This document shows positions 31,265 through 60,543 of a stretch of DNA of 64,000 bases, piece by piece. Source of the stretch: Marsupella aquatica (taxonomy: Eukaryota; Plantae; Marchantiophyta); NCBI GenBank assembly GCA_973895155.1, contig OZ316898.1, positions 126,751 to 190,750 of the forward strand. Direction: 5' to 3'. How positions within the stretch are numbered: position 1 is the stretch's first letter; every line of letters begins with the position of its first letter. Both the position numbers and the translations under genes were made by a program. The notes beneath the pieces are model-generated. The model searched no databases, had not been told where the DNA came from, and saw nothing but the letters and a program-made list of their open reading frames with translations.

Positions 31265-31270
31265 TCTTTT

Positions 31271-38509: not shown

Positions 38510-38896
38510 AATTCCACCTGGGACAGGTTGCAATTTAAGTGGAGGGCGGTAGTTATACTTAGTTAGAATTAGTGACCCTCCCTAGTAAGTATTCGGCATA
38601 TTTTTATTTTTTATTTTTTTTAGTTACTTTCAGTTTTTACATTGGACGCTGTGAAAAGCGTCCATTGTAACTCGACGCTGGGGAAGCGTCCACTTAGTTT
38701 ACAAAGGACGTTGTGCAGAGGTCCGCTTTTGTATTAGTTCAGTTGCATGAGACGCTGTGAGCCGATGACTAGGCATCTTGTACAATGGCGGATTGCGACA
38801 GCTCAACGGGACGCTGAGGAGTAAGCAGTCGCGCTTCGCCCTAGTTCACTATGGAACACGATTCTCACTGAGCTTACGGAGCTAATAAGTCATGCG

Positions 38897-41470
38897 ATGG
38901 CGGAGACTGAGCTGACGACGCGACCAATACTCGCAGACATTCCATCGAATGCAGTGCATAGGCGGCAGTTGAAGACGGCTCTGGCAAAAATGGGCTTGAA
39001 GAAGCTGCTTCAACTTCCTTGGAAGATTTGCGAATTCAGCCTTATCGATCAAGGTGTCTGGGACGCTGAAGAAAGGATTGGTGTGCGCTCGCGTCCCAGT
39101 GTTTGGACTGAAGCGCTCATAGCGAAGGTCTATTCGACGCCGATGGAGGGCGAGGATTTACAGAGGGTTGATTGTGAGCCTCGGGTTTATGTAGAATCCT
39201 TCTTCGCTCCAGGATCTTTCAAGAGGCGGAATGGATGGCTAGCGGCGGACTGCTTAGATAATTCTCTGCAGCGTCTATTTCGATTTCTGGCACCAATTTT
39301 CTACCCAGAAAGCCAGACGCGCATCACTCTTTCGTTCGCTGCAACGGTGATCTGTTCATTAGAACAGACGCAGTCTATCAATTGGACGAAGGTTTTGCAC
39401 CGAGTAATTCATACTCAGGTCAAAAAATTTCGTAGCAGGCTGAAAACGGGGAAAATAAGGTGTACCTACTTGGCCCCTTATTTAGCTCACATTTACCATA
39501 AGTATGACTGTCTGCTTGTCTTGGAAAAAGATTTTTATCGCAACAATCAGAGAGCATCTACCGGTGAAGCAAATTATATGCCTGAAGTACGAGAAGTCCG
39601 AGCCAATTCCACAGTGGTAGAGCTATGTGCAATACTCGACTGTGAGGAACCTGAACTGGTGGGTGAAGTTCGGAAATTGAAAGAGACAAGAGCATCAGCT
39701 GAAGGGAGTGACGATCCGATTCTTCACCAACCAAGAGAGGCTCAAGTTGCCGAAGATGTTCCTTCAGCAATGCCAACAGGGTTGGAGCATTCTATGTCAC
39801 CTCGACTCTCGTGTTCACCTTGTGCTGCCGAGCCTATTTATGATGTTGATCAGGATAATTCTGCTTCTCGGATGAATGTTGAAGATGAGGTGAGGGTGGA
39901 TGAAGAAGGTTTTTCAGGGGAACCTCTTCAACATTCTACTGCTGAGGACGAGTATGATGGATTTACTTCTACCCCTGTTTTGGTTCCCATAGAGGCAAAT
40001 AGTGATGCTTTGCAGGCTTTACAGGAGTATGATTCGTCCGACTCCCTTAGTTCTAGCCCAAATATAGGTGAAATCCCTCTGGTCCAGGAGTCAGAAATAT
40101 TAAGCTCAGAAATTGTGAAGCTGGTTAAAGTTGATTCGGAGGATGCAATTGTGGATATAGACGAAGTAGGTGAACCAGTGACTTCTCCCCAATCTGTCGC
40201 AAGATACCCTGCCTGGTCTACACCTGGTTCACTCATATCGATTCCTTTGGATATAACTAAGGAATTAGATGAGGCAATAGCCGCGATAGGAGCTCCTTCA
40301 TTTCCGCCTGTAAAATGGGTTTATCCTGAAGATGAGTTGATTGAAGGAGGCTCTGCTGGTTTTCCGAGTCGCAATCAGGTATCTGGTAATATGGGTATAT
40401 CTGTACCCATATTGGTACCCGAGACACCCGCTTCGACAACCAGCTCAGCACCAGTTTCATTGGCTACAAACGAGGATAAAAACATTCGGGAGGAGTTTTC
40501 AGTGACGTATACTCGAAAATCTTGGAAACGGTTGCGCCATGCTATCAGTCGACAGATCTTTCCTGAAGCATCTTCCCAGGATTTTGAACAGGGAGAAGCA
40601 CCTATCGGAACAGACGAGCTACCCCTTCCTGTACTTTTGGCAGATCGAACTAACCAGGAAGTCTCTTTACCTAGCGATAATTTTAAAGAAGAACTTCCTG
40701 TTTTAGTACCAATGCATCCCACTGCAGATCAACCAGCTACTGTTGCAAGAGAAGAATTTGAACCACTGGAGCCCGAACCTTCTGCTCCTTCGTCTCCTGT
40801 TACATTGCCAATTCGACCAGTTAAGGAGTCAGTGATTCCTTCCGCTATGCCAGATGTAATTTTCCGTTGGATAGGAGCACCAAGTGATGGAGAAGAAGAC
40901 GAAGACCCTCGCATTATCAGAGTACCTCCTCGACTTCGGCATACAGTGGATTTGCCATCCCGAAATCCTATCCCTAATTTGGCTTCAATTCACAGGTGGG
41001 AGAAGAAACATTTTCGAGTAGCTTTTCGACATCTGGAGATGGAGAGCATTTTGCAGCAGCAGCAGATTTTGCCAATGACATCCCATCCGAGGATTCGTAG
41101 TTTGATTCGCACATATGAACCTGGGAAGGCGGTTCCTCCCATTGATAAGGACAGACGACATAAGTTTTCGGAGTTCGAAATTTGGTGTTGGGTGTATATG
41201 CTTCGACGAGCTCAAGCTCCATTTCCGCCCCTTGTGCCGGAAATTCCATGGCCCTATCCATACTATGTTTGGGTTTGTCCTGGTGGGTTTGCTATTCCAA
41301 TTAAATATGAGAAGAAGCTTGTTAAGCTAAGGGAGCAGTTGATTACAAAACAATGTATGCTACCGGCTTCCCAAGGGTTCAAGTCGCTTAGGTGTTTAGC
41401 GTTCCTACCTATTATTCCTTCTTATCCGGATGTGATTATTCAAGGTGTTTTATCTAGGACACAGATTTGA
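38897..41470 (+). CDS. Z additional ORF (857 aa) between pol and 3' LTR; N-terminal domain related to the X/Y LTR protein core
   Basis: GLKKLLQLPW...WTEALIAKVYSTP...RNGWLAADC...FRFL resembles GLEAFVRLPW...LTPKVIAEVFGLP...KNGFFRNTC...IDFL, followed by an acidic/proline-rich region. Confidence 0.75.
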   Translation: MAETELTTRPILADIPSNAVHRRQLKTALAKMGLKKLLQLPWKICEFSLIDQGVWDAEERIGVRSRPSVWTEALIAKVYSTPMEGEDLQRVDCEPRVYVESFFAPGSFKRRNGWLAADCLDNSLQRLFRFLAPIFYPESQTRITLSFAATVICSLEQTQSINWTKVLHRVIHTQVKKFRSRLKTGKIRCTYLAPYLAHIYHKYDCLLVLEKDFYRNNQRASTGEANYMPEVREVRANSTVVELCAILDCEEPELVGEVRKLKETRASAEGSDDPILHQPREAQVAEDVPSAMPTGLEHSMSPRLSCSPCAAEPIYDVDQDNSASRMNVEDEVRVDEEGFSGEPLQHSTAEDEYDGFTSTPVLVPIEANSDALQALQEYDSSDSLSSSPNIGEIPLVQESEILSSEIVKLVKVDSEDAIVDIDEVGEPVTSPQSVARYPAWSTPGSLISIPLDITKELDEAIAAIGAPSFPPVKWVYPEDELIEGGSAGFPSRNQVSGNMGISVPILVPETPASTTSSAPVSLATNEDKNIREEFSVTYTRKSWKRLRHAISRQIFPEASSQDFEQGEAPIGTDELPLPVLLADRTNQEVSLPSDNFKEELPVLVPMHPTADQPATVAREEFEPLEPEPSAPSSPVTLPIRPVKESVIPSAMPDVIFRWIGAPSDGEEDEDPRIIRVPPRLRHTVDLPSRNPIPNLASIHRWEKKHFRVAFRHLEMESILQQQQILPMTSHPRIRSLIRTYEPGKAVPPIDKDRRHKFSEFEIWCWVYMLRRAQAPFPPLVPEIPWPYPYYVWVCPGGFAIPIKYEKKLVKLREQLITKQCMLPASQGFKSLRCLAFLPIIPSYPDVIIQGVLSRTQI

Positions 41471-41482
41471 AGGACACCATTT

Positions 41483-41959
41483 ATGAGAGATATCAAACGG
41501 TGTTGTCATTTATATGTATATAAGCCGTTACTTTTGCAGCATCCTGCAATTGTTTCCTTCTTTCTCCTTCGAATTGATATTTATCTGCTCATGTGGGACA
41601 TCAAAGCTACTATGGATTGTTGGAATTCTTTACCCCGTGCTTTCCAACATTCCTTTGAAGGCAAGATCAAACTGGGAGGACATGCTATTCAACACTTTGT
41701 TATTGATCCAGGCTCTCGAATTAATTTCCTCTCCCACAGACTGTGCCAGCAATTTGTTCATCAAGAAGTACAACCGATATCTGCTCAGATATCAATCGAT
41801 GGACGAATCATTAATCTTTGGGGAAGAGTTAAAGGAGTCCCAATACAGATCGGAGAAGAATTCCATGACCTCGATTTTTATATTCTGGATTCGGATATCT
41901 CCCAACTCCCGTCAATGATTTTGAGCACTACTTGGATTATTAAGCCAGAATATTATTAA
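41483..41959 (+). CDS. Second retropepsin-like (aspartic protease fold) ORF in Z
   Basis: FVIDPGSRINFLS...GRVKGVPIQIG...LDFYIL...MILSTTW follows the retropepsin pattern. Confidence 0.65.
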   Translation: MRDIKRCCHLYVYKPLLLQHPAIVSFFLLRIDIYLLMWDIKATMDCWNSLPRAFQHSFEGKIKLGGHAIQHFVIDPGSRINFLSHRLCQQFVHQEVQPISAQISIDGRIINLWGRVKGVPIQIGEEFHDLDFYILDSDISQLPSMILSTTWIIKPEYY

Positions 41960-42036
41960 TGAAGAACATGTCACTCGCTTCTGATTCAATTCGGTCATGT
42001 CTTGTGGGGACACGGCGAAATTTAAGTGGAGGGCTA

Positions 42037-43427
42037 TGTGGTATGGGTGTCCCTGCAATTTTTTCTGGAAACTTGTTTATTTTTAGCATATCACAAGATT
42101 TACTTACACTTTAGACACCTTCCGGCCAACATTTACTTGTTCTGGACACTTATAGAAATATTTGACATCTCCGGCTTTCCTGACGATTCCTAGTGTACTT
42201 TGCCCGACGCTGTGACCAGCGCCCGTTTCTTTTACTCAAGACGCTGCGGAAGCGTCCAACCTCCTCATGACGCTTTTGGCAGCGCCCGACCGCCACCAAG
42301 ACTCTATGAGGATTTCGACCGACGCTGTGGAAAGCGTCAGCTTCAACACACGACGCTGTGAGCAGCGTCCACCCTAGTATTGACGCTGTGAGCAGTGTGA
42401 GCAGCGTCCGTTGGTTTTACTTAAGACGCTTCTAGCAGCGTCCAGATTCTCCCGACGCTTCTAGCAGCGTCCGCTCAACACTTAGTTTTTGAAGTAGATT
42501 ACTAGTAAAGTAGTATTCTACCACCCTTGTTGAAGTACTTATGCTGTGCTTCTCCCTTGTTTAGTTTTAAGCTTGGAAAGGCACGACTGTTCTTACCTCC
42601 TCCATTTTAGGATTCCAGCACTTATAAGACAGAGTAGAATGCTCATTTGAAGTAGAGAGAAATAGAGTTAATACTGTATTCAGAATTGAGTCTTCTGAAT
42701 AGTTTTCTCCTCCTTCCATTGTAACAAGGCATGCTGTGAGTGTTTTGTATGGAAGTAAAGCTATATTGATTGAAGTTAAGATTGAATTCAAGAGATTCCT
42801 GTGGTGATTGAATTCAGTTGCAGATTTCTGAAACTCGTATTGAATTCACTGCTAGGCTTGCTTGCAGAGTCGGGATTCGCTAGCCAATTCAAGAATAGTT
42901 AATGATAAATGAGAAGTAAATTCTGATTCTCAGAGTAGTTAGTACTGTTGCTTTGATTCTGGAATATGGTTTAGAGTTTGACTGAATTGTGTATCGCTGA
43001 TGTCAAACCATGTTGACGGCATTTTAAATCATATCATTCATTTGCAATCAGAAAGCTTCTGCTTCATCAGATTGAGAATTCCATTATCATTAACCTTTGT
43101 GTTTTGAAGAGTGAGATGGATGAATTATGAGATAGATTTCATGTCTATACTGAGCCCAAATCCTTTCTGAAGGAGTGGCAGTAGCAGCTTGTAGTCTCTA
43201 AATCCTTACTCATTTCTTCTCTAATTCATAAATCAGAAGTTCAGTTACTTTGTTGTTTGTTTATTCGATTTTTTTTATTGAGAAGTGAAGTCAACATAGA
43301 GCTCAAGACTCTAAATCACTCGGAGTGATAAAAGTTATACAATTCATTCTGAAATCTGTTCTTAAAGGGATCGAAACCCTGGTTTTAGGTGAGAAGAGTC
43401 ACTTTTGATACTTAGCACTATACGACA
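42037..43427 (+). repeat. 3' LTR of Z
   Basis: Follows PPT AAGTGGAGGGCTA; followed by TSD AAGTT. Confidence 0.96.
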
Positions 43428-43432
43428 AAGTT

Positions 43433-46400
43433 TGCGCCTGCCTTGAGCATGTTGGTTAATGGTAAAGCTAGTTTGGCAAAATCTTTAATAAACCGGCAAT
43501 AATACCCAATGCAACCCAAGAAGGATCTTACATCCTTTATGTTCTTAGGTTGCATGATGTCAAGCCATACTGCTAGCTTACCTTTGTCAATCTCGATGCC
43601 CTTCTTTGATACCTTGTGACCTCGTAGCACACCTTCTGTTACCCCAAAGAAACATTTATCTGGATGTAACTTGAGACCTACCTCTCTGCATCTCATGAAG
43701 GTCTTCCTTAGGTATTTAGCATGTTTCGATGCCTTCCCGAATACTGCAAAGTCATCAATGAAGATTTCCATGAACTTTCTCAAGTAATCATGGAAAATGT
43801 TCACCATCAATCGTTGAAACATAGCGGGTGCGTTACAGAGTCCAAACGGCATGCGATTGAAGACATAGATCCCCCATTCCGTGATGAAGGCTGTCTTGAT
43901 TTGGTCCTCCTGCCTAATCCTGATTTGGTTATAACCAGAGTACCCATCCATGAATGAATATAGTTCATGACTGGCTACCATGTCTAGTACCATATCAGTA
44001 AAGGGTAAAGGAAAATGGTCTTTTAACGTCGCTTCATTCAGCTTCCTGTAATCCTGACAAACCCGGATCTTGGTTTTACCATCGGGTCCAGCTTTCTTGG
44101 GAACTATCACAATTGGAGACACCCAGTCTGAATGTAGGACTGGAGTGATGAATCCGGCTTCCACTAATTTGTCGATTTCTGTTTTGACCATCAGGGAATA
44201 CTTAGGATTCATCCTTCGAATTGGTTGTCTGAATGATTTGGCTCCTAACATGAGATCAATTCGATGTTCCCCTAATGTTGGATCTACTCCCTTTAGATCT
44301 TGGTGACTCCATGCGAACACATCCTGAAATTCAATCAGTAAGTCACTGATCTCTTTCTCAAGCTCAGGTGCTAGGTCTCTCCCTAAGTTCAGTTCCCTTC
44401 CTTCTCCTAAGTCGAGCTTCCGGTATTGCCGTGCTTGGATCATATTAATCTGCTTCTTCAAATTCGGGTCCAGCTCGGCTTCCAGCCTCTCTAGTCTCAT
44501 ACCTCCATAAACTGGAATCTCGGCTGTACTAGCCGAATCGGTTTCTCCCTTGGTGCCCACAGATTGTCCCCTTGCTGGTCTATTCGGTTTTGAATTGGTA
44601 GTCGGCTTTCCTTCCTGCCTCGGCTTTGGATTGTTTTTGTGCATCTCTTCCACCTCTTCCTCCTGAGGGTCAGGCCGCTATGCTCTCCCGGCTTCTAATA
44701 GGGCCTCAATTTGTTCTGCCCTTGTAATCGGCTTGTATGCCGATCCCTTGGTATTTAATTGCTTGCCGATGATAGACGGCGTTGTGGATCCTGCTGGCTT
44801 TGCCACAACGCCTAAGGAAAATCCACCATCACGGGTATAGCTCCCCCCTTAGCCATTTCATCCAACTGGCTTACTTCTTGTGCTTCCTCCGGAATTGCAA
44901 CTAAAAAGGTGGACTCTATGGCAAAGCAGTCCTTGGCTTCGTCTTGACAATCCTCCAAGTCACTCTCCATAGGTTCTTGCCATAGTCCGTTGGGGGATAC
45001 CTCTGGTCCAAAGACACTTTCTTCGGTTTGGTCAGCGAGGTATTCTAACCATCGTACCTCATCGGCTGATTCCAGTCCACTGTCGTACCCGTCTACCTCC
45101 TTGATATTTCTTCTGCGGTCATCCTTGGTATCCCTGGATACCGTGATAGAGGGGGTCCCAAAAGTGAACTCCTTCTTACCCCAATCCTCTATTACCTTGG
45201 CTAGGTATAGCCACGGTCTACCAATCAATAGCCGGAATGACGTAGGATTTACCGGCTTCATTACTACATAGTTAATGCTAAAGAAGATACCTCCTATCTC
45301 TGTCTTGATGCCGGTTAACACTCCCGTGGGAATGACCTGATACCCATTGGTCATGTTCAACACTCTTCCAGTCATTTCCGATGTTAGACCCCACCCCTTT
45401 GCTGTTGAATCAATCATAATACATACCCCTGATCCTCCATCGATGGGTACCCGTAGTAATATTTCTCCTTGAATCATTAATGGTAATGCTGGGGCTCCTT
45501 GATCTTCTTCTATCATTAGTACGTCGGATCTGGTCGCTACCTTGGGTAATCTTGGCTTGCCGAGGATCGCCTTTCTTAACTGCTTCCGGAAGTACGGGCT
45601 ATTTTTCAATAGTTGACCTACTGTTGCCGAGACTCTAGATTCTAGTACTTCTTTAGCCAGGTCATAGGGAACTATCGGCTTCTCCAGTTGTGTCTCTATC
45701 TTGGATTCGGCCTGTTTTTTCACGCTAGTCCCTACAGCCGTTGGATCTTCCGAAGCAAACAATGCTTTTGCTCGTTTCATATCCTTGGCTATGGCTTCAG
45801 TATTCTCTAGGGTTTCTAATTCTCGCAGTTGTTCCTTAACACTAGCCGTGATAGATGGGTAGAACAACTTAGGGTGGTCTCGATTGAAGTCGCTATCCTG
45901 TGAAGGATTGGGCTCACTGGTGGGCTCATGGCTTACCTGTGTTGACGGTGCCCTTCCTTCTCCTTCCGTTGCTGTTGACGAAGAGTTGATCTTTTCTTCC
46001 TGAACCTTCCCTTTATTTTTGGCCAGCCCATCCCACCTTTCCTTCCTTCTGGTTGATCGAGTAGAGACCCGGTAGCAATCACTATCCATATCCTCTTCTG
46101 AAAATGTTGATAGGGCCTCGGTCTCATCATCAGATGGTCCAAATTCTACCTCGGCATCCACTTGCCATCCGAGTTCGATGTGGTTGATTTGAACTCCTCC
46201 TGGGGTAGTACCTGGCGGCAAGACCTTGACCGGCAAGAGCTTATGATTTGCGGCCAATCCCGCCAACCAAGTAGGACATTGTCCTAGCATGTGACCCTCC
46301 TGTCGGCATCCCATACATAGTTGAGTTGGCTGTCCATCACCTTGTTTGCGTGCATTCGGGCATTCTCTAGCAAAATGGCCAGGTTGACCACAATTATAGC

Positions 46401-47747
46401 ATGCCGCAAATCTTTGCACATTTGGCCTAGGAGGTACTGACGGATTCTGAATATAATCCGAGGATACATCTCTCCTGGATTGTTCCTTAATCCTGACCAG
46501 AGAGATGCAGGTCGGTTGGATAGGTCTCGTGCTCCAGTCTCACTGATGCCGAAAACACTATCAGCGACATCTCCTAGAAAGTACTCTACTTCTCCCTGAC
46601 ATGGTCTGACTTCAGCCACATGCCAAACGTGACTAGTATTGAGCTTAGGACACGCATCTTTATGGTGTCCGGTTTTATAACATAAGGCACACCATACAGA
46701 TCTATCCTCCTGTACTACCTTCTTCTTCGGTTTTACCTCTACTATTATAGCTTTAAGCTGCTCGGTAAGGGCTACGATGTTATCTGGTGGTTTAGCCTCC
46801 AGCTTGACTTTTGTCTTCCCTCTTCTTTTGCCCTTCCTTTTCCTAGTTTTTTCTTCTTCAGAATTAGAGGATGACTCACTCTTGCTACTTCCACTATCCG
46901 AGCTTGAGTTATCACTTCTTGACTTCTTAGAGTGTTTCTTTTTCTTATCCTTTTTCTTATGGGGTGATCCTTCCTTCGATGAGGAACTCTCAGACTTAAG
47001 CTGTTTCTTCCGGCTTGTGATATCTGCATTAATGTATTATTGAATATCTTTAATTGCCTCGGCTAAAGTCTCTGGGTTCTCCTTCCTAATTGCAAAACTC
47101 ATCTTCTGTGGCAAAGCATTCACCAACCATTGAAGTTGCATACCTTCAGATGCATTGGTCTTTGTACGTCTTACCAGTTTCTGAAAGCGTTGCAAGAACT
47201 TCCTGAAGGATTTGTTCTCCTTGAACCGAAGTCGTCCCAACTTCAGCACTGCTAGTTCTGAAGTTCCAATGGGTTGAAACTCCTTAACAAATAGTGTTTT
47301 GAAGATATCCCAGATGGCTTGATCTTCCACATCCAATGCTCTGTACCAAGGCCTAGCCTCACCCTTGAACAGGCCGGGAAGAATCTGCATCTTGATGGCC
47401 GATTCTCCATTTGCTGTAGCGGTTCCCTTGAAATCATCCAACCATTTGTCCGGATCCTCATCTCCTCTCCCATGAAATGCCTTGTAATGAATGCGCGACC
47501 GTTGGCTCAGTCTGGTCCCTGGCCTCTCATCTGGCCGTGCCTCTGGTTCCCCCATGTCGGTTGGGTACTCGTTTCTTCCTACCGACTCTTCTTCTGGTAT
47601 GTCTTCTTCGACGCCACTTCCAGCTTCGGAGCTACCAGCTCTTTCTGCCCCTCTCAGTCGCTGTGTATCATGCCACCCGGCGAGCTGCTGCAGACGAGCT
47701 CTCTCCCGTTGAATCGCTCTTTCCTCCCTTGGCGTAGGTTCAGTCAT
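43433..47747 (-). pseudogene. X2 gag-protease-RT (stops and frameshifts)
   Basis: ORFs 47037-47747 (Gag), 44812-46419 (CCHC, VPIDGGSG, LIGRPWL) and 43418-44653 (RT: CQDYRKLN, FIDDF). Confidence 0.92.
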
Positions 47748-47794
47748 TACCTATGCTTCTTTCCTAACTTCATATCTCACGGCTTAAGAAATGC

Positions 47795-47812
47795 CCCCTC
47801 CATCTAGCGCCA
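47795..47812 (-). promoter_or_regulatory. PBS of X2 (tRNA-Asn type)
   Basis: TGGCGCTAGATGGAGGGG, 4 nt after the LTR end ...GCACCACA. Confidence 0.8.
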
Positions 47813-50800
47813 AAAATGTGGTGCGTCCCATGGCTCCCTAAACCCCAGAAACCCCCCTTCACAAGCCGATTCCCGCGGGTTTCACGCTTGGCGAGGCCGT
47901 TTTTGCGGCTTAGTGGCATGGGACGCTGCTAACTTCCTTCTACTACTACTATTAACATTTTACACACATATACTGGACAGATCCTTCATCGGGTCATGAG
48001 ATCCATAGCCGGCCTAATATAGGCCTTCCCTTGTCTTCCCCTCCTTCTTGTTAGGTATATTTGGATTCCGCCGCCAAAATGATCCCCAATAGGCTTGGTT
48101 AAGCCGCTAAGACCTCTCTCAGCTGGACACATCCAACTCTCACTCCCTTGCTTACTCTCCTTCATCTATTAGTTGATGTGGGCACTCTTCACACAAGTTA
48201 ATGCGACACACAAATAGCAAAATGACTCATTCTGACTGAGTCATACCATGCACTTGCCATACAAACAGTACATCTCATACACAAGCTCTGCGAACTAAGC
48301 CGTGAGGCCAACTCTATTCAGCTCTTAGGCATGAGGAAACATGAATATACACAAGGGTCACTGTATGACTAACCGAGAGCTTCTCGTACTACTTGATCCC
48401 AGCCCGGCTGGTGCAAACTAAAAACTTGCTAAAGAAGAGGCCCTGAGCTCCCCGCTGCCCAGGTACTTATCCTGGTAGTGGATCCGCCTAATTCTTTGCA
48501 GCGTAAGCCTAATCTACCTAATAGTAATCTACTTGCCCGGCTCTACCTATGTACAGCAAGGCAGGAGCACAAGTGTTGCTCCTACCAATGGAACTGCAAT
48601 CCGACTAAGCTAAGTGTCAGGGCCGCCTCCTGTCCTGATCCTAATCCTAAACTTAGAGATCTGAGCCCGCCCTGCCCACTCACGCCTCCTCCCTCCACGT
48701 CCGCCCTCCTTGAAAGGAGTGGCCCTCCACCACCGTCATGGCAGCGGTGTCTGTTCCTCAGTGGACGCCCCCAACGCTTCCTCCTCAGCCACTGCCGTAG
48801 GTTCGTTCTTTGACACATTACCTGCCCTTGACTGAGTCAACTCTCCATCGGCCTGACTGGGTCCACCCCCGCCAATGGCATCGGCTTCAACATCAGCCTC
48901 GGCTACGGCCTCAGCCACGGCTGGCCATCAGGGACGCAAGCTCCTGCTGCAGCGCAATAATCCCTTGATAGGATTTCCCTAAGTCGACCTCCTTCTGCTC
49001 AAGGGCTCTACTCGAGCTCCCCCTTCAATGCCCTTTCCCTTCAATGCCCTTTCCCTTCTCTGGGTCTCCGCCATGGCCCGATTGTTGGCTATTATGTGGG
49101 CCTCCTCTGCATCCCTCAGCTCTCGCTTCCACTTCTCCCGCTCCTTGATCGCATCAGCCAACTCTCCTTGGGTTCGAGTCAGTTTATTCTCGATAATCCG
49201 ATTATCAGACTGTGCGATATCCAATTGGCCCTGCATGATATTTAGCTCATGCCGCTTAATCCGCAGCTCATCTTGGGCTTTCTTGGCCGCCCTCAGGTCT
49301 TTAATTTTGGCTTCCCTTGGCCTAAGCCGACGGATGACCTCCTCCTTCTTGCTTCTTTCCAAAGCCACCGCTTCTTCTAATTGGCGCTTCTCCAACATCT
49401 CCCTCTGAAAAAAGGGTCCTTGCTCCAACTCCTCCCCAAAGATGCTGAGCGCCAGCTCTCCACACATTTCCCCGTACTCCATGGCTCTATTCTTAGCATA
49501 GGTGGAGGAAGTAGAAGTCATCGGCATCATCCACCGCGGCCTTTGTTCCCAAGCCGCCTTGCAGATCTTGTCTATTGTGGCTAGAGGGATGCTTCATTTT
49601 TCTGCAAGCCGCCTGATGTCCTCTGGCCATTCTCCTCCTGGTAAATCCTTTTCCCTAGCCAGGGCTGCCTCCTCTTCCTCCCTAATTCGTTCTTGAAATT
49701 CCTGCGTCGTCTGTTTTATGCCGTCAAAGCTCAGGGGAGCGACATCTGGTGGGGGAGACTCGGGGCTGCTCTGCTGGCTCGGGTCTCCTTGAACTACTCT
49801 TGGGAGCGTGGGGATGAACCGGCCACAGGTCCTTACTCCTGGAACATGATGATCCGACCCGTAGCCGGAGTCATCATTGCTGTAGTCCTCTACCGCCTCC
49901 TCGTCGGCTTGGACTACCGACTTCTCCCGCTGTTCTCCTGGTTTTGTCGTGAACACTGCTTCACCTCTCACCGATCTTGGTTCCTCCTCCGGCTTCCGTG
50001 TTGATCTCTTGTTCTCCTTGTCGTGGCCGGGAGCTACGGCCTACTTCTCCTTGGCTTCGGGACTTGAGGCTCCTACATACATCCGGACTCCCGGCTCGTG
50101 TTCCAGCCTCCTTCTCTCCTTGACCCCAGTAAAGGGGTTTTCCCTTGTAAGCCGGCTTAGGCCCACCTCTGGAGCAGTGTCCTGCATTGGTGCCGTTGCT
50201 GTTGCCGTTGCCGTTCTCTTTTCCTTCTCTAGCAATTTCAGCAGATTCTGCATGCCTGGTTGCTGCATCGGCAAGTCCTCCGTCCTTGGCCTAAACACCT
50301 GCTCGATTGTAGGACTGTCGGGCGGGTTGGGTTTCTCCGTTGCCGGCCTCTGTTCCGGAACCTCCTCTGGTGCCCTTGCCTGTAGGGGAAGTACCGGGGC
50401 AAAGGTCTTACTTCGGGCATACCGGCATAGTAGCGGTACGTGATAGCCAAGCCGGGACACGCTTCCCTTGCCAATCACCAGTTGTTCCTCCTTCAAGATC
50501 TTCTTTAGTTGAGTGAGGAGGTACCCATTGTAGTCCCGGCTTGGGTCTGGCCTCTCTGCCAGATAGACCTGTGCCTTGCCGATCTCTGGTCTCGGCCAGT
50601 TGCAATGCATGGTCACCCGCAAGAAATCGATCATCTCTCCTATATGCGGGTTGGTGCAGGTGTTTCGGAAGAAGCCATTCTTTGTTGAAGGCCCGGGAAA
50701 CGACCGGAACTCCTTGTCTGGCAAAGTCTTCCTGGTATCTCCCTTGGTCTTATTGCCCTTTGGCAAGCCAAACACTTTGGCAATCACCTGGGGAGTGAGA

Positions 50801-51978
50801 TAGAAATCCTTCCCATACACCCTTGTGGAATTGGTCTCGGACTTCCATGATCCCACGAATTCTAGTAAGTCTGAATCTGGCACCTCCGGCTTCAGCCACG
50901 GTAACCTTACGAAGGCTTCCAAGCCGGATCCGGCCATGAAGCCCTGGTATTTCTGAGTCTGCATAGCCGTAAAGCATGCATCCTCCTCCTGTGCAAAGTA
51001 TAATTGCACTTCCTCGGGGAGAATCGCCGCCCAGCCTTTCCTGGTGTCATCTCTTGTGGAATGGCTCAAGGGAGGCTTGAGTAGGAAATGCGTCAGTTTT
51101 TTGCTTTCAAGGAGTAGTAATTACATAGTTTAGTGATTAGCGGAGTTGTTAGGTTTAAGGTAACTTAATAACTAGGGAAGTAGAGTAGGGAAATAAATTG
51201 AGGGAGAGGACATGTTTCTCTAAGAAGTATCAAGAGTTGAGTAAGTTATTTGGTAAGGGTGGAAAAAAGTTACGGTAGTCGGCAAGTCGGGCCGAAGGCA
51301 TGATCGATACTTTTGAGTGATAAGTTTTGCTAAGACTCATCCTATAGGTGCTAGGTAGTCCCTAGACCACACATAAAAGTCACAAAGTCAAGTGGGGTCT
51401 TAACCTAGGAGTTGTAAGTATTTTGGCAAAACTTAAAGTTACCAAATAGCGGGTCTCGGGAAAAATAGCTGATGGGAAAAGGTAGGGGTTCCAAGTTGCA
51501 AAATAGGTTAAAAATGGTCCACTCTATCCCTGGAAACTTGTGGGAGAACTTGGTTACCTTTGGTTACTTTTTGGGAGCATCTCAAAGTTGAGAAGAATTT
51601 TGGAAAACATAAGAATTAACCCTCTTTACCTAATTTTAGAAAATTGGTTATAGGGTTTTGTTTAGATCTCAGTAAACCAGGACATAGCCCTATGTCAAGA
51701 AAATCTATGGATCTACTGAAAAGTCCTTTTGGCCTTATGGGTGATTTTTGGCGGTGGGTACAATATGGGCCGGGGAATTATAGTTTTTCCCAAATAACGA
51801 AATCCGACTAAGTGTAAAAACGCTTCGATGAGGCTACCACAAGGCAGGAATAAGTCAAGCACAAGGGCGGCTAGGAGATGGTTGAATAGACCAGGCAATC
51901 ACAAGGTGAAGGAACTTGAGTGGGAGTGGTAGTTAGTTGGACTTTTGTTGTAGTGTGACTTTGGTAGTTAGTAGGACT

Positions 51979-52190
51979 TTGGTGGGCTACCTTGGTCCTT
52001 GGTCCTTGGTGGGCTACTTTGGTCCTTGGTCCTTGGTGGGCTACTTTGGTCCTTGGTCCTTGGTGGGCTGCTTTGGTCCTCTACCTTGGTCTTTGGTCCT
52101 CTACCTTGGTCCTTGGTCCTTGATGGGCTACCTTGGTCCTTGGTCCTTGGTGGGCTACTTTGGTCCTTGGTCCTTGGTGGGCTACCTTGG
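51979..52190. repeat. Tandem array of about 27 bp in W upstream of the TATA box
   Basis: Unit GGTGGGCTACYTTGGTCCTTGGTCCTT. Confidence 0.88.
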
Positions 52191-52818
52191 TGTGGTGTGG
52201 AAGGAGAATAGTATATAAGGAGGAAGTTTTCATTTGTTAGGGACCGGGAGTCTCATCTCTTAAGTGGAATCTCTACCTTGCCAAGGTAGGGCTAAGCTTG
52301 AGAAGGGAGAGGTGGTCCATGCTTAGTGTGGAGAATGTGTAGTGAACTTTTGTTGTAAAGGTGATGCAATAAAAGGAGACTTGTCAATCTTCATTGTGAC
52401 CATTAAGTGTGAGTGCATTTGAAGCATATGAGAGCAAGAGAAGAGTCCATGCTATGATGTAATCTTGGTCTAAGCTTGAAGGGGATGTGCTAGTACAAAA
52501 CCAAGGCCAAGAGGCAAGGTTAAGGTAGAGCACTACTTTGAGACTTAGAGAGGATTATAGCTTGAGGGTGGAAAGTATTTTGCTTGGTGTATGGTGTTAA
52601 CAAGAAGTAAGAACAAGAGGAAGAGTCCTTAGATAGAGGAGCCTTCTCTAGAGCTCAAAGGGGATGTGTGGACCCAAACCAAGGCCAGGGGGCAAGGTTG
52701 AGGGGTAACACTACTTTGAGGGTCTTGAGGAGACTTAAGCTTGAAGAGGAAAGTACTTTGGTTCTTGGGTGTTTGTGTGAGACTCTTCTCTAAGGTGACA
52801 GCTTGGAGCGGAGATCCC

Positions 52819-54017
52819 TGAGGTGCGTCCCATGGCTCCCTAAACCCAAGAAACCCCCCAGCTCAAGCCAATTCCCGCAGGTTTCGCGCTTGGCGAGGCC
52901 GTTTCCGCGGCTTAGCGGCATGGGACGCTGCTAACCTTCTACTACTACTATTAACATTTTACACACATATACTGGACAGATCCTTCATCGGGTCATGAGA
53001 TACGTAGCCGGCCTAATCTAGGCCTTCCCTCGTCTTCCCCTCCGTCTTGTTAGGTATGTTTGGATTCCGCCGCCGGAATGATCCCCAATAGGTTTGGTTA
53101 AGCCGCTAAGACCTCTCTCAGCTCGACACATCCAACTCTTACTCCCCTGCTTACTTTCCTTCCTTCTGGTTGATGTGGGCACTCTTCACACAAGTTAATG
53201 CGACACACAAATAGCAAAATGACTCATTCTGACTGAGTCATACCATGCACTTGCCATACAAACAGTACATCTCATACACAAGCTCTGCGAACTAAGCCGT
53301 GAGGCCAACTCTATTCAGCTCTTAGGCATGAGGAAACATGAATATACACAAGGGTCACTGTATGACTAACCGAGAGCTTCTCGTACTACTTGATCCCAGC
53401 CCGGCTGGTGCAAACTAAAAACTTGCTAAAGAAGAGGCCCTGAGCTCCCCGCTGCCCAGGTACTTATCCTGGTAGTGGATCCGCCTAATTCTTTGCAGCG
53501 TAAGCCTAATCTACCTAATAGTAATCTACTTGCCCGGCTCTACCTATGTACAGCAAGGCAGGAGCACAAGTGTTGCTCCTACCAGTGGAACCGCAATCCC
53601 ACTAAGCTAAGTGTCAGGGCCGCTCCTGGTCCTGATCCTAATCCTAAACTTGGAGATCAGCGCCCGCCCTGCCCACTCACGCCTCCTCCCTCCACGTCCG
53701 CCCTCCCTAAAAGGAACGGCGCCCTTGCACCGTCACGACACCGGTGGTGGATCCTTAATGGACGCCCCCAACGCTTCCTCCTCAGCCACTGCCGGTCCTT
53801 CTTCCCGTTGATCCTTCCTAGCCGCTGACGCTTAACGCACCCTAACCCTAATCGAGTTTTCACCCTCAGCGTCCTTACCTCCGGCCTCGGCCCGGGTTCC
53901 ATGGTTGCCCCTAATTGTTTATATTTTCCTTGTTTTGTCCCTATACTAAGGTGTTCCTAGGGTGCCTTCCTGCTTTACCCACTTAACTCGCCGAGTGATT
54001 CCTGTCTAGGCATCACA
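52819..54017 (-). mobile_element. Miniature X1 solo LTR (1199 bp) with the ORF deleted
   Basis: Both X termini present, TSD ATCCC, deletion junction at CTGCCG 53789-53794. Confidence 0.93.
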
Positions 54018-55279
54018 ATCCCCCTTGCTGATCCTTGGAGTAGAGGAGAGGAGAAGGGTGTGAGTACAAAAGTAGTCAAGGGGACTACCTCTCTAGAAGT
54101 GGAGAGTTGAAACTACTTATGTATGGAGTGATTAGTCATTGTAGGCACATTTCAGAAGTTTTGTCAATCCTTTGTGACCCTGGTATGATATGGAGCAGGT
54201 ATTAGGTAGTCTTTTGGGGAGAAAAGCCGCTTAAGCTCCTTGACATCTCTTGTTGGAATGGCGTTGATGGGGTCGACCTCCTCCTCCTCGGCTTCTCTCT
54301 GCCTCCGGCTCTGTTGTTCTGCTGGCTTCTTTGGTGCCGCCGACCTCGTTCTTTTTGCCGGGGTGGCCTCTTCGTTGTTGTTCCCCTTCCTCTTCATCTC
54401 GGCTGCCGTGGATGTCTCTCCTAGCATGGTTTCCTTTGTCCACCCCTCCGTGCTACCCTTCAACTCCCAGTGTATGTCGTTGCAGCATTTGATGGCTTCG
54501 CGGATGCCGATGACTCTGTTTTCGCAAAACAGCAGGTCATCTAGCTCGTTGCCAGTAGGCGTCCACAGGAATTCAGCCTTGATGAGTTCTCCTCCTAAGA
54601 AGGCAGCTTTCTGTAGCTCCCACAATCGGGCGAGCTCCTGCCGTTCTCGAGCTGCTCTCTCCGATTCTTCGTCCTCGTAAGTCCCAATGTACTCAGTTGC
54701 CCGTTCGAACAGGCATCCCCAAAAATGTGCCGCTTGATTGATGTTGCTCATACCCTTCTTGAGTTCATAGTCGGTATCTGTTTCCACCCTGAGCGCTTGC
54801 CTAAGCACTTGACAGTAGTTGGCCGCCCGTAGTCGCCTGCCCAGTTCGTGCTTGCAGATGAGCCACTACTCCTCGCTAGCGGTCCTTACCCCTCTCCTCC
54901 TCTGGTTCTCCCTCCCGTTGGTTACCCCTAGCCGCCGGCACTTAGCGTGCCCTAACCCTAATCATGTTCTCTCCCCTGGCGTCCTTACTTCCGGCCTCGG
55001 CTCGGGTTCCATAGTCACCCTTAATTGTTTATATTTTCCTTATTTATGTAACTATACTAAGGTGTTTCTAGGGTACACTTCCCTTTTCCCCTAAAACTAG
55101 CCCAGTGATTCCTGGCTAGGCATCACAACAAACCTGCCCACAAATGTGAGACAAGCACCTTCAACTTCCACTCGCAAAAAGTGAATCGGCCACCTAGCAA
55201 TCTCTAGCACCCATGCAATCCAACTTTATCCTTAAGAGGCCAAGAGGAGTGAAACTAGGATACAACTCACAAAGGTAGT

Positions 55280-58200
55280 TGTGATGCCTAGACAGGAATC
55301 ACTCGGCCGGTTAAGTGGGTAAAGCAGGAAGGCACCCTAGGAACACCTTAGTATAGTGACAAAACAAGGAAAATATAAACAATTAGGGGCAACCATGGAA
55401 CCCGGGCCGAGGCCGGAGGTAAGGCTAAGGGTGAAAACCCGATTAGGGTTAGGGCGCGTTAAGCGTCGGCGGCTAGGAAGGATCAACGGGAAGAAGGACC
55501 GGCAAAGGAGAGGGGTAAGGAGCGCTTGCAGGAGATGGTGGCTCATTTGCGAGCACGAACTAGGCAGACGACTACGGGAGGCCAACTACTGTCAGCTGCT
55601 TAGGCAAGCACTCGGGGAGAGAGTAGATACCGACGATCGACCTAAGGAGGGTATGAGCAACGTCAATCAAGCGGCACATTTCTGGGGATGCCTGTTCGAA
55701 CGGGCAACTGAGTACATCAAGACTTACGAGGACGAGGAGTCAGAAAGGGCAGCTCGAGAACGGCAGGAGCTCGCTCGATTGTGGGAGCTGCAGAAGACGG
55801 CTTTCTTAGGAGGCGAACTCATCAAGGACGAGTTCCTGTGGACGCCTACTTCCAATCAACTCGACGATCTTCTGTTTTGCAAAGACAGCGTCGTCGGCAT
55901 CCGAGAGGCCATCAAGAACTGCAACGACATACACTGGGAATTAAAGGGTAGCACGGAAAGGTGGACCCAGGCAACGGTGCTAGGAGAAACCTCCACGGCA
56001 GCAGAGATGAAGAGGAAGGGAGCCATCAACGATGAAGCCACCCCGGCAAAAAGAACGAGGTCGGCGGCACCAAAGAAGCCAGCCGAGCAGCAGAGCAGGA
56101 AGCAGGGAGAAGCCGAAGAGGAGGAGGTCGATCCCATCAAGGCCATTCCAACCAGGGATGACACCTGGAAGGGCTGGGCGGCAACCCTACCGGTGGAGGT
56201 GCAACTACATTTTGCACGGGAGGAGAATGCATGCTTTACGGCCATGCAGACCAAGAAGTACCAAGGCTTCATGGCCGGATCCGGCTTGGAGGCCTTTGTA
56301 AGATTACCATGGCTGAAGCCGGAGGTACCGGAGTCAGACCTATTAGAATTCGTGGGGTCATGGGAACCCGAGACCAATTGCACGAGGATATATGGGAGGG
56401 ATTTCTATCTTACTCCCAAGGTAATTGCCGAAGTGTTTGGCCTGCCGATAGGCAATAAGACCAAAGTTGATACCAGGAAGACCTTGCCTGACAAGGAGTT
56501 CCGGTCGTTCCCCGGGCCATCAACGAAGAATGGCTTCTTCCGGAACACCTGCACCAACCCGCACATAGGAGAGATGATCGACTTCTTGCGGGTGACCATG
56601 CATTGTAACTTGCCGAGGGCAGAGATCGGCAAGGCACAGGTCTATCTGGCAGAAAGGCCAGACCCAAGCCGGGACTACAACGGGTACCTCCTCAACCAAT
56701 TGAAGAAGATCTTAAAGGAGGAGCAGCAGGTAATCGGCATGGGGAGCGTGTCGCGGCTTGGCTATCACATGCCGCTGTTGTGCCGGTATGCCAGAGGTCA
56801 GACTTTTGCCCCGGTACTTCCCCTGCAGGTAAGGGCACCCGAGGAAGCTCCAACGCCGAGGCCGTTGGCTGAGAAGCCTCAACCACCTGTTAGTCCTACG
56901 ATCGAGCAGGTGTTTAGGCCCAGGAAGGAGGACTTGCCGATGCAGCAACCAGGCATGCAGAGTCTGCTGAAACTACTGGAGAAAGAAAAGAAATCGGCAT
57001 CGGCAACAACAACGGCAACGGCAACAATGCAGGACACTACTACAGAGGTAGGCCTACACCTGCTCACAAGAGAAAACCCCTTTGCTGGAAACAAGGAGAG
57101 AATCAGGTCGGAATCCAAGCCAGGTGTTCGAATGTACGTGGGAACCTCAAGCTCCGAATCTGAGGCAGAATTGCCTGAAGCTCCTACCGACGAAGAGGAG
57201 AGGGAGAAGCCGGACGTCCAAGAGGTAGAGGAGGCAGTGGAGGACTGCAGCCATGATAATTCCGGCTATGGGTCGGACCATCACGTTCCAGGAGTAAGGA
57301 CCTGTGGCTGGTTTGTCCCCACACTTCCAAGGGTAGTGCGAGGGGACCCCAACCAGCAGAGTAGCCCTGAGTCTCCCCCACCAGATGTTGCTCCCCTAAG
57401 CTTCGACGGCATAAAACAGACGGTGCAGGAATTTCAGGAGCGAATCAAGCAGGAGGAAGAGGCCGCCCTGGCTAAGGAAAAGGATTTACCAGGAGGAGAT
57501 TGGCCGGAGGACATCAGGCGGCTAGCCGAAAAAGGAAGCAAACCTCTAGCCACGATTGAAGAGATCCGCAGGACGGCTTGGGAGCAGAGGCCACGATGGG
57601 CGATGCCGATCACTTCTACTTACTCCACCTACGCTAAGAATAGAGCCATGGAGTATGGTGAGATGTGTGGGGAACTTGCGCTCGACATCTTTGGAGAGGA
57701 GTTGGAGATAGGACCCTTTTTCCATAGGGAGCAGTTGGAGAAGCACCAATTAGAAGAAGCGGTGGCTTTAGAGAGAAGCAAGAAGGACGAGGTCATTCGG
57801 CGGCTTAGGAGGATGGAAGCCGAGATTGAAGATCTAAGGGCGGCCAAGAAAGCCCAAGATGAACTGCGGATTAAACGACATGAGCTGAACATCATGCAGG
57901 GGCAGTTGGACACCGCGCAGGCTGATAATCAGAATATCAAGGATAAACTGACTCAGACGCAGGAAGAGTTGGCCGACACGATCAAAGAGAGGGAGAAGTG
58001 GAAGCAAGAGCTAAAGAATACAGAGGAGGCCCACATAACAGCCAACAGCCGGGCCATGGCGGAGACCCAAAGAAAGGAATGGGCGTTGAAAGGGGAGCTC
58101 GAGAAAATCCGCGGAGCCCTTGAGCAGAAGGAGGTCGAGTTAGGGAAATCCTATCAAGGGATTATGGCGCTGCAGCAGGAGCTTGCGTCCCTGACGGCCA

Positions 58201-59915
58201 GCTTCAAGGCCGACCTAAGGGAGAAGGACGAGATGCTCGAACAGACTTACGCCAAGATGAACCAGATGGAGTCTGTCATCATTGCAGAGCTCGACAAGGA
58301 GCTAAGAGCAACCCAGGAGGAGAGGGCTACCTTGAAGAAGGAATTGGAGGAAGCCCACAGGGAGCAGGAGGAGGCCAAAAACGAGCTGGAGGGGGCACGT
58401 AAGGACCTGGATGAAACCCAAGAGGAGTTGGAGGAAATCACGAGGAAGATGGAGAACCTACAGCGGCGGGCCGACAACCAAACAGAGCGGCTGAAGAAAC
58501 AAGCCGCAGTATTTAAATGCTTAGCTGCAGCAGGTCCATCTCCCGTTGGGACAAACCAGTTACCAGGGGTGGTAATTGCCGAAGGACAAGCCGCGCCACC
58601 TGCACCAGTGCCGGAAGTAAGTGGGAAGGGGAAGGGACCAGCTGCCGAGCCACCAACGAAGAAGAAGCGGAAACCTTCAGGGTCAAGGAGTAATACGACT
58701 TCACAGGCCGTGGTGATCAAGGAGGTAGACCCAGCACCGACCCCAGACAGGGTCACGGCTAGGGATCCAACTACCCTAGGGGAAGGGGAGGCCGAAGCCG
58801 AGGGAGTGGCTGAGGCCGAAGCCGTGGGTATTGCCGAGGCCGGTGTCGAGGCTGAAGCCGAAGGTGGACCCAGTCAGGCCGATGGAGAGTTGACTCAGTC
58901 AAGGGCAGGTAATCTGTCAGAGAATGAACCTATGGCAGTGGCTGAGGAGGAAGCGTTGGGGGCGTCCATTAAGGATCCACCACCGGTGTCGTGACGGTGC
59001 AAGGGCGCCGTTCCTTTTAGGGAGGGCGGACGTGGAGGGAGGAGGCGTGAGTGGGCAGGGCGGGCGCGGATCTCCACGTTTAGGATTAGGATCAGAACCA
59101 GGAGCGGCCCTGACACTTAGCTTAGTGGGATTGCGGTTCCACTGGTAGGAGCAACACTTGTGCTCCTGCCTTGCTGTACATAGGTAGATTCGGGCAAGTA
59201 GATTACTGTCAGGTAGATTAGGCTTACGATGCAAAGAATGGCGGATCCACTACCAGGATAAGTACCTGGGCAACGGGGAGCTCAGGGCCTCTTCTTTAGC
59301 AAGTTTTTAGTTTGCACCAGCCGGGCTGGGATCAAGTAGTACGAGAAGCTCTCGGTTAGTCATACAGTGACCCTTGTGTATATTCATGTTTCCTCATGCC
59401 TAAGAGCTGAATAGAGTTGGCCTCACGGCTTAGTTCGCAGAACTTGTGTATGAGATGTACTGTTTGTATGGCAAGTGCATGGTATGACTCAGTCAGAATG
59501 AGTCATTTTGCTATTTGTGTGTCGCATTAACTTGTGTGAAGAGTGCCCACATCAACAGAAGGAAGGAAAGTAAGCAGGGGAGTGAGAGTTGGATGTGTCG
59601 AGCTGAGAGAGGTCTTAGCGGCTTAACCAAGCCTATTGGGGATCATTCCGGCGGCGGAATCCAAACATACCTAACAAGACGGAGGGGAAGACAGGGGAAG
59701 ACAGGGGAAGGCCTATATTAGGCCGGCTACGTATCTCATGACCCGATGAAGGATCTGTCCAGTATATGTGTGTAAAATGTTAATAGTAGTAGTAGAAGGT
59801 TAGCAGCGTCCCATGCCGCTAAGCCACGGAAACGGCCTCGCCAAGCACGAAACCTGCGGGAATCGGCTTGAGCTGGGGGGTTTCTTGGGTTTAGGGAGCC
59901 ATGGGACGCACCACA
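55280..59915 (+). mobile_element. Complete X1 solo LTR (4636 bp) with intact ORF
   Basis: TGTGATGC...GCACCACA, TSD GTAGT (55275-55279 and 59916-59920), no adjacent PBS or PPT. Confidence 0.96.
55395..58994 (+). CDS. LTR-encoded accessory protein (1199 aa from the first ATG; 1113 aa from the conserved ATG at 55653)
   Basis: Uninterrupted 3.6-kb frame; synonymous differences to X2 copies in the core; KRKG...PAKRTR and PTKKKRK basic motifs; E/K/L-rich heptad coiled coil; no Gag, RT or integrase motifs. Confidence 0.9.
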   Translation: MEPGPRPEVRLRVKTRLGLGRVKRRRLGRINGKKDRQRRGVRSACRRWWLICEHELGRRLREANYCQLLRQALGERVDTDDRPKEGMSNVNQAAHFWGCLFERATEYIKTYEDEESERAARERQELARLWELQKTAFLGGELIKDEFLWTPTSNQLDDLLFCKDSVVGIREAIKNCNDIHWELKGSTERWTQATVLGETSTAAEMKRKGAINDEATPAKRTRSAAPKKPAEQQSRKQGEAEEEEVDPIKAIPTRDDTWKGWAATLPVEVQLHFAREENACFTAMQTKKYQGFMAGSGLEAFVRLPWLKPEVPESDLLEFVGSWEPETNCTRIYGRDFYLTPKVIAEVFGLPIGNKTKVDTRKTLPDKEFRSFPGPSTKNGFFRNTCTNPHIGEMIDFLRVTMHCNLPRAEIGKAQVYLAERPDPSRDYNGYLLNQLKKILKEEQQVIGMGSVSRLGYHMPLLCRYARGQTFAPVLPLQVRAPEEAPTPRPLAEKPQPPVSPTIEQVFRPRKEDLPMQQPGMQSLLKLLEKEKKSASATTTATATMQDTTTEVGLHLLTRENPFAGNKERIRSESKPGVRMYVGTSSSESEAELPEAPTDEEEREKPDVQEVEEAVEDCSHDNSGYGSDHHVPGVRTCGWFVPTLPRVVRGDPNQQSSPESPPPDVAPLSFDGIKQTVQEFQERIKQEEEAALAKEKDLPGGDWPEDIRRLAEKGSKPLATIEEIRRTAWEQRPRWAMPITSTYSTYAKNRAMEYGEMCGELALDIFGEELEIGPFFHREQLEKHQLEEAVALERSKKDEVIRRLRRMEAEIEDLRAAKKAQDELRIKRHELNIMQGQLDTAQADNQNIKDKLTQTQEELADTIKEREKWKQELKNTEEAHITANSRAMAETQRKEWALKGELEKIRGALEQKEVELGKSYQGIMALQQELASLTASFKADLREKDEMLEQTYAKMNQMESVIIAELDKELRATQEERATLKKELEEAHREQEEAKNELEGARKDLDETQEELEEITRKMENLQRRADNQTERLKKQAAVFKCLAAAGPSPVGTNQLPGVVIAEGQAAPPAPVPEVSGKGKGPAAEPPTKKKRKPSGSRSNTTSQAVVIKEVDPAPTPDRVTARDPTTLGEGEAEAEGVAEAEAVGIAEAGVEAEAEGGPSQADGELTQSRAGNLSENEPMAVAEEEALGASIKDPPPVS

Positions 59916-60543
59916 GTAGTCACAACTGCCTGTACAAGGTCACAATGAAGGTAAGCCGCTTTGCTTACAATAGCTACCAAGGATTTCTCGTGCAATACCC
60001 AAATTTTCTTCCGGTTCCCAATTACTTTTGGCTTGGTCATAGCCAACCCACTTCACCAAATACTCCAAGATTTGTCTTCCCAACTTATTGTAATAGGAAA
60101 TGTTATCTTATGTGGAAGAAATGGTTTTCAATGACCACATTGAGGAACTTGAATGGCTATTAAAGCATCTTTGAAGTATGTTAAGCTTAAATCATACCAA
60201 GGTGCATTTGGGCAAGAAGTAGCTCAAACTTTTATCAAGATTGTGTTACCCACCTTCTACTTAGTAGTTCATGAGAAAAATTACACCAAGTAAGTGAAGG
60301 AAATCAAAAAGTTATTCCATCCGGATTTTGATCTGATTAGGACACACCACCTGGTAGAAAATTGATGACAATTTCCAAACCATTTAACCAAATCCCCGAC
60401 CAAACCAAGATCTTTAAAGTGTGTTGGAAAGCTCTCTCTGAGGCGATTAAGGTAGATATAAAGATGTCTGAAAATGGATTTGAAATGACCCCATTTAAGA
60501 TTATGAGACACCAACCGGTGCAACCAAGAGATATCCAAGATTT

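Follow-up and report, generated by a model that had tools for sequence, protein, structure and literature searches.

How a long terminal repeat (LTR) comes to hold a large gene, and what the gene product may do for the element, are the questions raised by a solo LTR of the liverwort Marsupella aquatica. Solo LTRs are usually regarded as non-coding remnants; this intact one, LTR X, carries a 3.3-kb gene. We analyzed it within a window, the whole stretch of 64,000 nucleotides, to which all positions refer. Our main reading, to which we give a probability of about 0.55, is that X is an LTR from a non-chromovirus Ty3/gypsy family and contains a selected gene of 1,113 aa, whose product likely binds DNA in a sequence-specific manner and acts for its own family as an anti-silencing factor of the VANC/PMD type.

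LTR X occupies 55280..59915 (+), is 4,636 bp long with the ends TGTGATG...CACCACA, and lies between two GTAGT target-site duplications (TSDs; 55275..55279 and 59916..59920, +), confirming the previously noted TGT...ACA ends and perfect duplication. Two of four runs contained, in one contig each, the joint of the empty site (55274 to 59916; 4,641 bases skipped, 5 letters shared), with a short side of 23–25 letters, below the 30-letter caution threshold. Neither related loci nor the LTR end was found in metagenome contigs. The 5' non-coding stretch (55280..55652, +) contains an upstream in-frame ATG and, at 55374, a TATA-like TATAAA with identical letters in all five aligned copies. The 3' non-coding stretch (58995..59915, +; 921 bp) presumably holds the promoter, R, and U5, and from 59080 onward the LTR is 93–99.5% alike between subfamilies.

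That the unit is an LTR and not a mere TG..CA unit follows from element B, a sister subfamily on the minus strand, because its repeat pair flanks gag-PR-RT-RH-INT together with a primer-binding site (PBS) and a polypurine tract (PPT). Its 5' LTR (47817..55127), with a broken ORF and interrupted by nested inserts, is followed 4 nt further on by the PBS (47795..47812). The gag-PR-RT-RH-INT region (22057..47750) is split by nested elements, and the PPT (22069..22083) abuts the 3' LTR (19537..22068), which is truncated where element A inserted. INT runs through the PPT and ends at a stop codon no more than 12 nt into the 3' LTR. The two LTRs (55127 to 47817 and 22068 to 19537) are 96.2–97.8% alike mutually and 84.7% alike to X. 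This pair supported the original prediction that both LTRs of a gypsy lineage carry the gene. Alternatively, gag-pol might be flanked by chance by a self-standing TG..CA element or by an internal region with wrongly drawn bounds, and the 3' end of element B does lie beyond the window, with the full-element TSD out of view. However, two co-oriented copies that are each other's closest relatives exactly abut the PBS and the PPT, all three solo copies with both ends visible in the window have 5-bp TSDs of their own, and contigs passing 59915 mostly run into PBS-like sequence (33 contigs, run X2, agreement 0.39). We regard this alternative as very improbable. Among the contigs listed, none spanned the junction of INT and LTR with 31 letters on each side.

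The LTR contains a stop-free frame of 1,217 codons (55341-58994), compared with a maximum of 349 in 300 base shuffles. The long intact ORF that had been proposed therefore stood, but not its upper length of 1,200 aa: codons upstream of the ATG at 55653 evolve neutrally, which places the gene at 55653..58994 (+; 1,113 aa, 3.34 kb, 72% of the LTR). An alternative start, the ATG at 55395, was rejected; the frame upstream has a dN/dS of about 1 and is interrupted by stops or frameshifts in three of four other copies, which are also decayed elsewhere. The accessory gene is under purifying selection, with a dN/dS of 0.09–0.12 in its conserved domains. Selection had been proposed from two 30-nt core sequences differing at silent sites, and both are present in the window, at 56283 (+) and at 21034 and 50896 (-). 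The constrained parts are an N-terminal domain (55653..56000, +; aa 1-116, dN/dS 0.10–0.12), for which neither relatives nor an Atlas lead (0.75) was found, and a core domain (56160..56795, +; aa 170-381, dN/dS 0.09–0.10). A long predicted coiled-coil region follows at approximately 57700..58520 (+; limits read from the sequence), with a dN/dS of about 0.2 where comparable, and downstream of it come a basic patch, KKKRK, and an acidic tail that is not under constraint. We infer that the protein has a coiled coil and a nuclear localization signal. Coiled coil and low-complexity sequence make up more than half of it. No transmembrane segment, as in an env-like ORF, was found (highest 19-residue Kyte-Doolittle mean, 0.82).

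Contrary to the earlier claim, the gene is not retained in every solo LTR. The six family copies within the window comprise one intact copy, four broken or deleted ones, and one cut by the window edge (1..596, -; 98.5% alike). A second solo X LTR (1845..5352, +; TSD AATGG) has a broken, partly deleted ORF, and a third of 1.2 kb (52819..54017, -; TSD GGGAT) has lost nearly the whole ORF.

Homologous ORFs were present in two further families. In family Y, a broken ORF (about 12017-9965, -) lies within a probable LTR (9021..19533, -; about 4 kb excluding a nested copia at 12112-18588), which is followed by a PBS and then the gag of element A. In family C, the homologous ORF (38897..41470, +) is internal, between INT and the 3' LTR, and an upstream PPT copy (38532..38547, +) matches the working PPT (42019-42034) exactly over 16 nt. 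Neither these ORFs nor the duplicated PPT appeared in the original prediction. The accessory gene of X is homologous to this internal 3' extra ORF of family C.

From the synteny with family C, the gene of X probably lies in U3. In the relatives, the gene is located downstream of the integrase and ahead of the LTR, flanked by two PPTs. If the upstream PPT served as the plus-strand primer, all downstream sequence, including the gene, would become U3; each round of reverse transcription would copy it to both ends, and recombination would then leave it in solo LTRs. The gene could also lie in R/U5 as a captured 5' ORF, with the TATA-like site at 55374 as the sole promoter, the ORF read from unspliced RNA, and gag-pol from spliced RNA. 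Consistent with that arrangement, all five aligned copies share an unchanged TATA-like site and two unchanged GTAAG donor-like sites (55419 and 55515), and family Y carries TATAAAAG about 360 nt inside its LTR. It is nonetheless improbable: the homologous gene of family C is a 3' ORF, preceded by a PPT copy that lies almost equally far from the ATG, the most conserved part of the LTR is its last 600–800 bp, as expected of promoter, R, and U5, and a minus-strand strong-stop DNA of 4.5 kb would presumably be needed. The window holds both layouts, the gene internal between two PPTs and the gene inside an LTR, which point to a simple route by which LTRs may acquire genes and reach lengths of about 5 kb. 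Loss of an element through LTR-LTR recombination would leave its accessory gene in place, since the gene persists in an intact solo LTR.

A Transposase_32-type core had been suggested by eye. PF20167 matched in 5 of 48 homologs, all below the Pfam gathering cut-off of 45 bits (best, 31.8 bits), and Atlas ranked a Transposase_32-type relative second, at 0.90. The cores of X, B, Y, and C had no PF20167 match, and X itself had no Pfam match at all; PF10536 and DUF1985 matched neither the four cores nor the 48 homologs. At the level of sequence, the core thus appears to be a remote relative of Transposase_32 only, and this supports the suggestion. No match to X residues came from word-based protein searches. 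The predicted core structure resembles VANC21 (PDB 9LNK) at 7% identity, and modeling makes it quite probable that the core has the VANC21 DNA-binding fold. PDB sequence searches returned coiled-coil noise or nothing, and no VANC21. Foldseek searches of PDB and of BFVD yielded no match at E<=0.001 (the best viral row reached E 0.047), and re-examination of 78 Foldseek rows gave no relevant match.

Because the core is predicted to fold like a transposon protein that lifts silencing, LTR sequence that would ordinarily be non-coding likely provides the element with an anti-silencing tool. An anti-silencing role had been suggested as a hypothesis only, and the predicted fold lends it structural support. 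Chances are roughly even that the protein uses its coiled coil to oligomerize, binds to short sequence motifs in the non-coding DNA of its family, and counteracts DNA methylation or Polycomb marks at those places. Its supply in trans could come from intact LTR copies, young solo LTRs among them, provided that the TATA-like site at 55374 functions as a promoter. With the same structure, the protein might instead be a DNA- or chromatin-binding transactivator, an integration-targeting tether, or a particle scaffold. Function does not follow from fold alone, coiled coil and low-complexity stretches account for over half of the protein, and family insertions lie among nested retroelements; no accumulated short target motif or motif array was found in X, B, or Y. 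The Athila domain, moreover, is predicted to form coiled-coil oligomers with many host contacts, according to the available part of PMC13547354. We consider such other functions rather unlikely, however, as the sole structural neighbor is an anti-silencing protein, the fold's other known carriers likewise counteract silencing, and the non-coding DNA of family C has repeated short motifs in a VANC-like layout. Enrichment of TTAGG/CTTAG was discarded as a family-specific signal, because TTAGG is also present in a copia LTR.

The role of plant gypsy extra ORFs is described as an open question in the available text of PMC7264820 and PMC11963269. For the Transposase_32-like ones, the VANC21 fold match offers a specific, testable answer, and family C offers a candidate sequence to use as the target in a binding assay. 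More broadly and more tentatively, it is possible that, by PPT switching, a lineage of bryophyte gypsy elements brought an anti-silencing gene with the VANC fold into U3. The LTRs of this lineage, solo ones included, would then be self-contained gene-plus-target modules that unsilence the family in trans, and the Athila/Transposase_32 extra ORFs, PMD, and VANC would represent one old counter-silencing fold reaching back to liverworts, with retrotransposons having their own sequence-specific anti-silencing systems.

ORFs within or overlapping a retroviral U3 are known from MMTV (sag) and HIV (nef), vertebrate retroviruses, and encode a few hundred residues. They share with X a coding sequence inside the LTR that is copied to both ends, but they are unrelated in sequence, and the gene of X is far larger at 72% of its LTR. 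Among plant elements, Athila ORF1/Transposase_32 (PF03078, PF20167), the Ogre PMD (PF10536), and Retand Transposase_28 likewise are conserved accessory ORFs downstream of the integrase that combine a globular domain with a coiled coil. In the available parts of PMC7264820, PMC6317226, PMC11963269, and PMC11728184, the 3' extra ORFs of non-chromovirus gypsy elements lie in the internal region, as in family C, whereas the gene of X lies inside the LTR; further supplementary lists of PMC6317226 could include such LTRs.

As for lineage, X shares with Phygy, Selgy, and Athila (REXdb; Neumann et al., 2019) the GAG-PR-RT-RH-INT order of non-chromoviruses without an extra RNase H. The archaeal-type RNase H of the Tat clade (TatI-III, Ogre, Retand) was found in none of the scanned pol pieces of A, B, and C (Pfam, E<=1). 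According to the available part of PMC6317226, TSDs are 4 bp long in Phygy and Selgy, and extra ORFs are absent from both clades; X differs in both respects. The 5-bp TSD and the sense 3' ORF fit Athila, which mostly uses an Asp/Asn PBS according to the portion consulted of the REXdb survey (Neumann et al., 2019). The nearest named RT-RH relatives come from liverworts, and in a quick RH tree (94 of 123 rows, 176 columns, no bootstrap, no labelled Athila reference) A, B, and C grouped with liverwort and other rows, apart from seed-plant rows.

VANC21 of VANDAL21, a Mutator-like DNA transposon, and the MAIN/MAIL plant mobile domain resemble the X system in predicted core fold, transposon-encoded origin, coiled coil, and the non-coding motifs of family C. 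The core of X has no sequence-level link to VANC21, its host is an LTR retrotransposon with liverwort relatives, and its DNA binding and anti-silencing activity are predicted. The available text of PMC13547354 places VANC in dicots only, and that of PMC5418596 describes PMD as present across the angiosperms. A VANC/PMD-like fold in liverwort retrotransposons would bear on whether the fold arose in hosts or in transposons, a question left open in that part of PMC5418596.

The solo LTR X (4,636 bp, 55280-59915, forward strand) begins with TGTGATG, ends with CACCACA and is flanked on both sides by GTAGT, in agreement with the TGT...ACA ends and GTAGT target site duplication (TSD) of the original prediction, whose two quoted 30-mers were also both found in the window. 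An empty site for X was present in two of four public runs, as a contig in which 55274 is joined directly to 59916 and five letters are shared, the short sides of these contigs being 23 and 25 letters. The X family has six copies in the window, and three of its solo copies have 5-bp TSDs of their own. The gypsy element B, of the sister subfamily on the minus strand, has a co-oriented LTR pair (55127->47817 and 22068->19537) enclosing gag, protease, RT, RNase H, and integrase. Its PBS starts 4 nt past the 5' LTR and its PPT directly adjoins the 3' LTR; the integrase frame crosses the PPT and stops inside the LTR, with no 3' untranslated spacer (22057-22083, minus strand). The pair is 96.2-97.8% alike, and X is 84.7% alike to the 3' copy. 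X is a true LTR, and B bears out the proposal of a gypsy lineage with the gene in both LTRs. This gene-bearing architecture is real and well supported (probability about 95%). Because the internal region of B is ~6.6 kb once nested inserts are removed, B measures ~16 kb, of which ~9 kb is LTR.

Several other features were observed in this family. The 1.2-kb solo LTR at 52819-54017 (minus strand) lacks the gene between short shared sequences, and could represent a later deletion or a member of a gene-less mini family. A TG..CA insert with TSD AGAGA (51066-54240, minus strand) lies inside the 5' LTR of B; it lacks a long ORF and carries an array of tandem repeats near 51958-52191. At 59280-59680 the subfamilies are 95-99.5% alike, compared with 74-94% in the ORF, which means either that constraint is strong here or that the two recently recombined.

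The stop-free frame of X (55341-58994) spans 1,217 codons, the longest in 300 base shuffles being 349. We computed dN/dS of the X gene against the B LTRs. The value was 0.74-1.2 in codons 5' of the ATG at 55653 and dropped to 0.10-0.12 (aa 1-116) from that ATG; the X protein, encoded at 55653-58994, is therefore 1,113 aa and occupies 72% of the LTR. Of the predicted ~1100-1200 aa, the upper value of 1,200 aa is not supported for the selected gene. dN/dS was 0.09-0.10 in the core (aa 170-381), 0.08-0.11 in aa 537-596, about 0.2 in the coiled-coil region, and about 0.94 in the final 147 codons (59 alignable codons only). Across 690 codons it was 0.17 (p 9e-47), which upholds the suggested selection on the protein; shifted frames gave 1.1-4.0. 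The further claim that every solo LTR keeps the gene whole failed: one of six family copies is intact, four have stops, frameshifts, inserts or deletions, and one is cut by the window edge. Codon changes private to the intact copy comprise nine synonymous and nine replacement changes. Public contigs showed indels at 20 places; of the 12 listed, two fall within the ORF and offset one another, eight within the 3' non-coding part, and two within the flank.

A related ORF occurs in family Y (19533->9021, minus strand), which shares its first nine bases with X, has an ACA end and contains a nested copia element. Its ORF core matches that of X at E 1.8e-15, and no non-coding similarity to X was detectable beyond those nine bases. 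The PBS and gag of element A come after Y, and Y is probably an LTR (~4 kb), single-copy within the window, with the PBS 12 nt from its end. Y also has a 52-bp tandem duplication at 9745-9848. Two Ty1/copia elements are nested at 12112-18588 and 22770-28332, the LTR of the first having TTAGG-rich tandem repeats.

The third family, C (29874-43427, forward strand), has ordinary 1.4-kb LTRs, and its ORF is internal, placed after integrase and ahead of the 3' LTR. These LTRs are identical at 1,389 of 1,391 positions, and C is a very young element. Its gag, RT-RH, and INT share one frame with single stops between them, and the apparent TSD is the 6-bp AAAGTT. By BLAST the C ORF matched X weakly (E 0.007); profiles built from X alone and C alone reached one another in two rounds (1.2e-12 and 5.6e-10), in a searched set itself gathered with a profile containing both.

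The PPT of C is present twice, as an exact 16-mer just past the integrase stop (about 38532-38547) and before the 3' LTR. The ATG of the C ORF lies ~350 nt past the upstream PPT, and that of X lies 373 nt past the LTR start. By the established mechanism of reverse transcription, the left end of U3 is defined by whichever PPT serves as plus-strand primer, and each end of the element receives a copy of U3. Priming from an upstream PPT would place the ORF within U3, where it would be copied to both element ends. We infer the U3 position, and consider it fairly likely that the gene entered U3 through such a PPT switch, with the direction of change as a proposal; that the X gene instead lies in R/U5 of the LTR seems improbable. 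The upstream PPT of C has no TG after it and so is now either a relic or a central PPT; it may work as the latter.

A quick RNase H tree of 94 of the 123 rows joined A and B to two Calypogeia fissa proteins with SH-aLRT 96, and C fell outside that group. The best named RT-RH relatives were from Calypogeia and Riccia, with Marchantia lower and one Tanacetum row in between, which makes a liverwort host likely. Two homologs of the core, P0055 and P0079, one of them a Riccia sorocarpa gene model, also matched a DDE_Tnp_4 fragment below the cut-off; the gene models may be fusions, or the core may be linked to transposons of the Harbinger type.

In structure prediction, the core of X quite probably has a fold like that of VANC, the anti-silencing protein of VANDAL21. 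This fold is common to VANC and the plant mobile domain (PMD) of MAIN/MAIL, which counteract Polycomb silencing (PMC13547354; bioRxiv 2024.09.27.615353), and bryophyte transposons are repressed by PRC2 (bioRxiv 2022.10.24.513474). A putative anti-silencing role is our best single guess for the X protein, at roughly even odds. VANC proteins target short motifs amassed in non-coding regions of their own transposons (PMC5735166). C has the same layout: a spaced palindrome occurs seven times per LTR, three times in the 5' UTR, and once in the stretch from the upstream PPT to the ORF, with none in 8.6 kb of C coding DNA and one in the remaining 50.4 kb of the window. The count (19 matches overall; 11 independent sites in C) is descriptive only, because the pattern was derived from those same sites. 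No family-specific motif of this type was found in X, B, or Y, so that either X is not directly analogous to VANC, against which this result counts, or its site is short or degenerate.

ORFs in or overlapping U3 are familiar from retroviruses, as in MMTV sag and HIV nef. Non-chromovirus LTRs reach about 5 kb, and the extra-ORF domains described by Neumann et al. are Athila ORF1, PMD, and Transposase_28 (PMC6317226); the PMD was also found in angiosperm gypsy elements, its origin being left open there (PMC5418596). In full-text searches of mainly open-access literature, we found neither a description of a plant LTR that contains a large gene nor a link between Transposase_32-like ORFs and the VANC fold. 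Published accounts place the extra ORFs of plant gypsy elements in the internal region, with function unknown (PMC7264820; PMC11963269; PMC11728184), whereas the gene of X lies inside the LTR itself.
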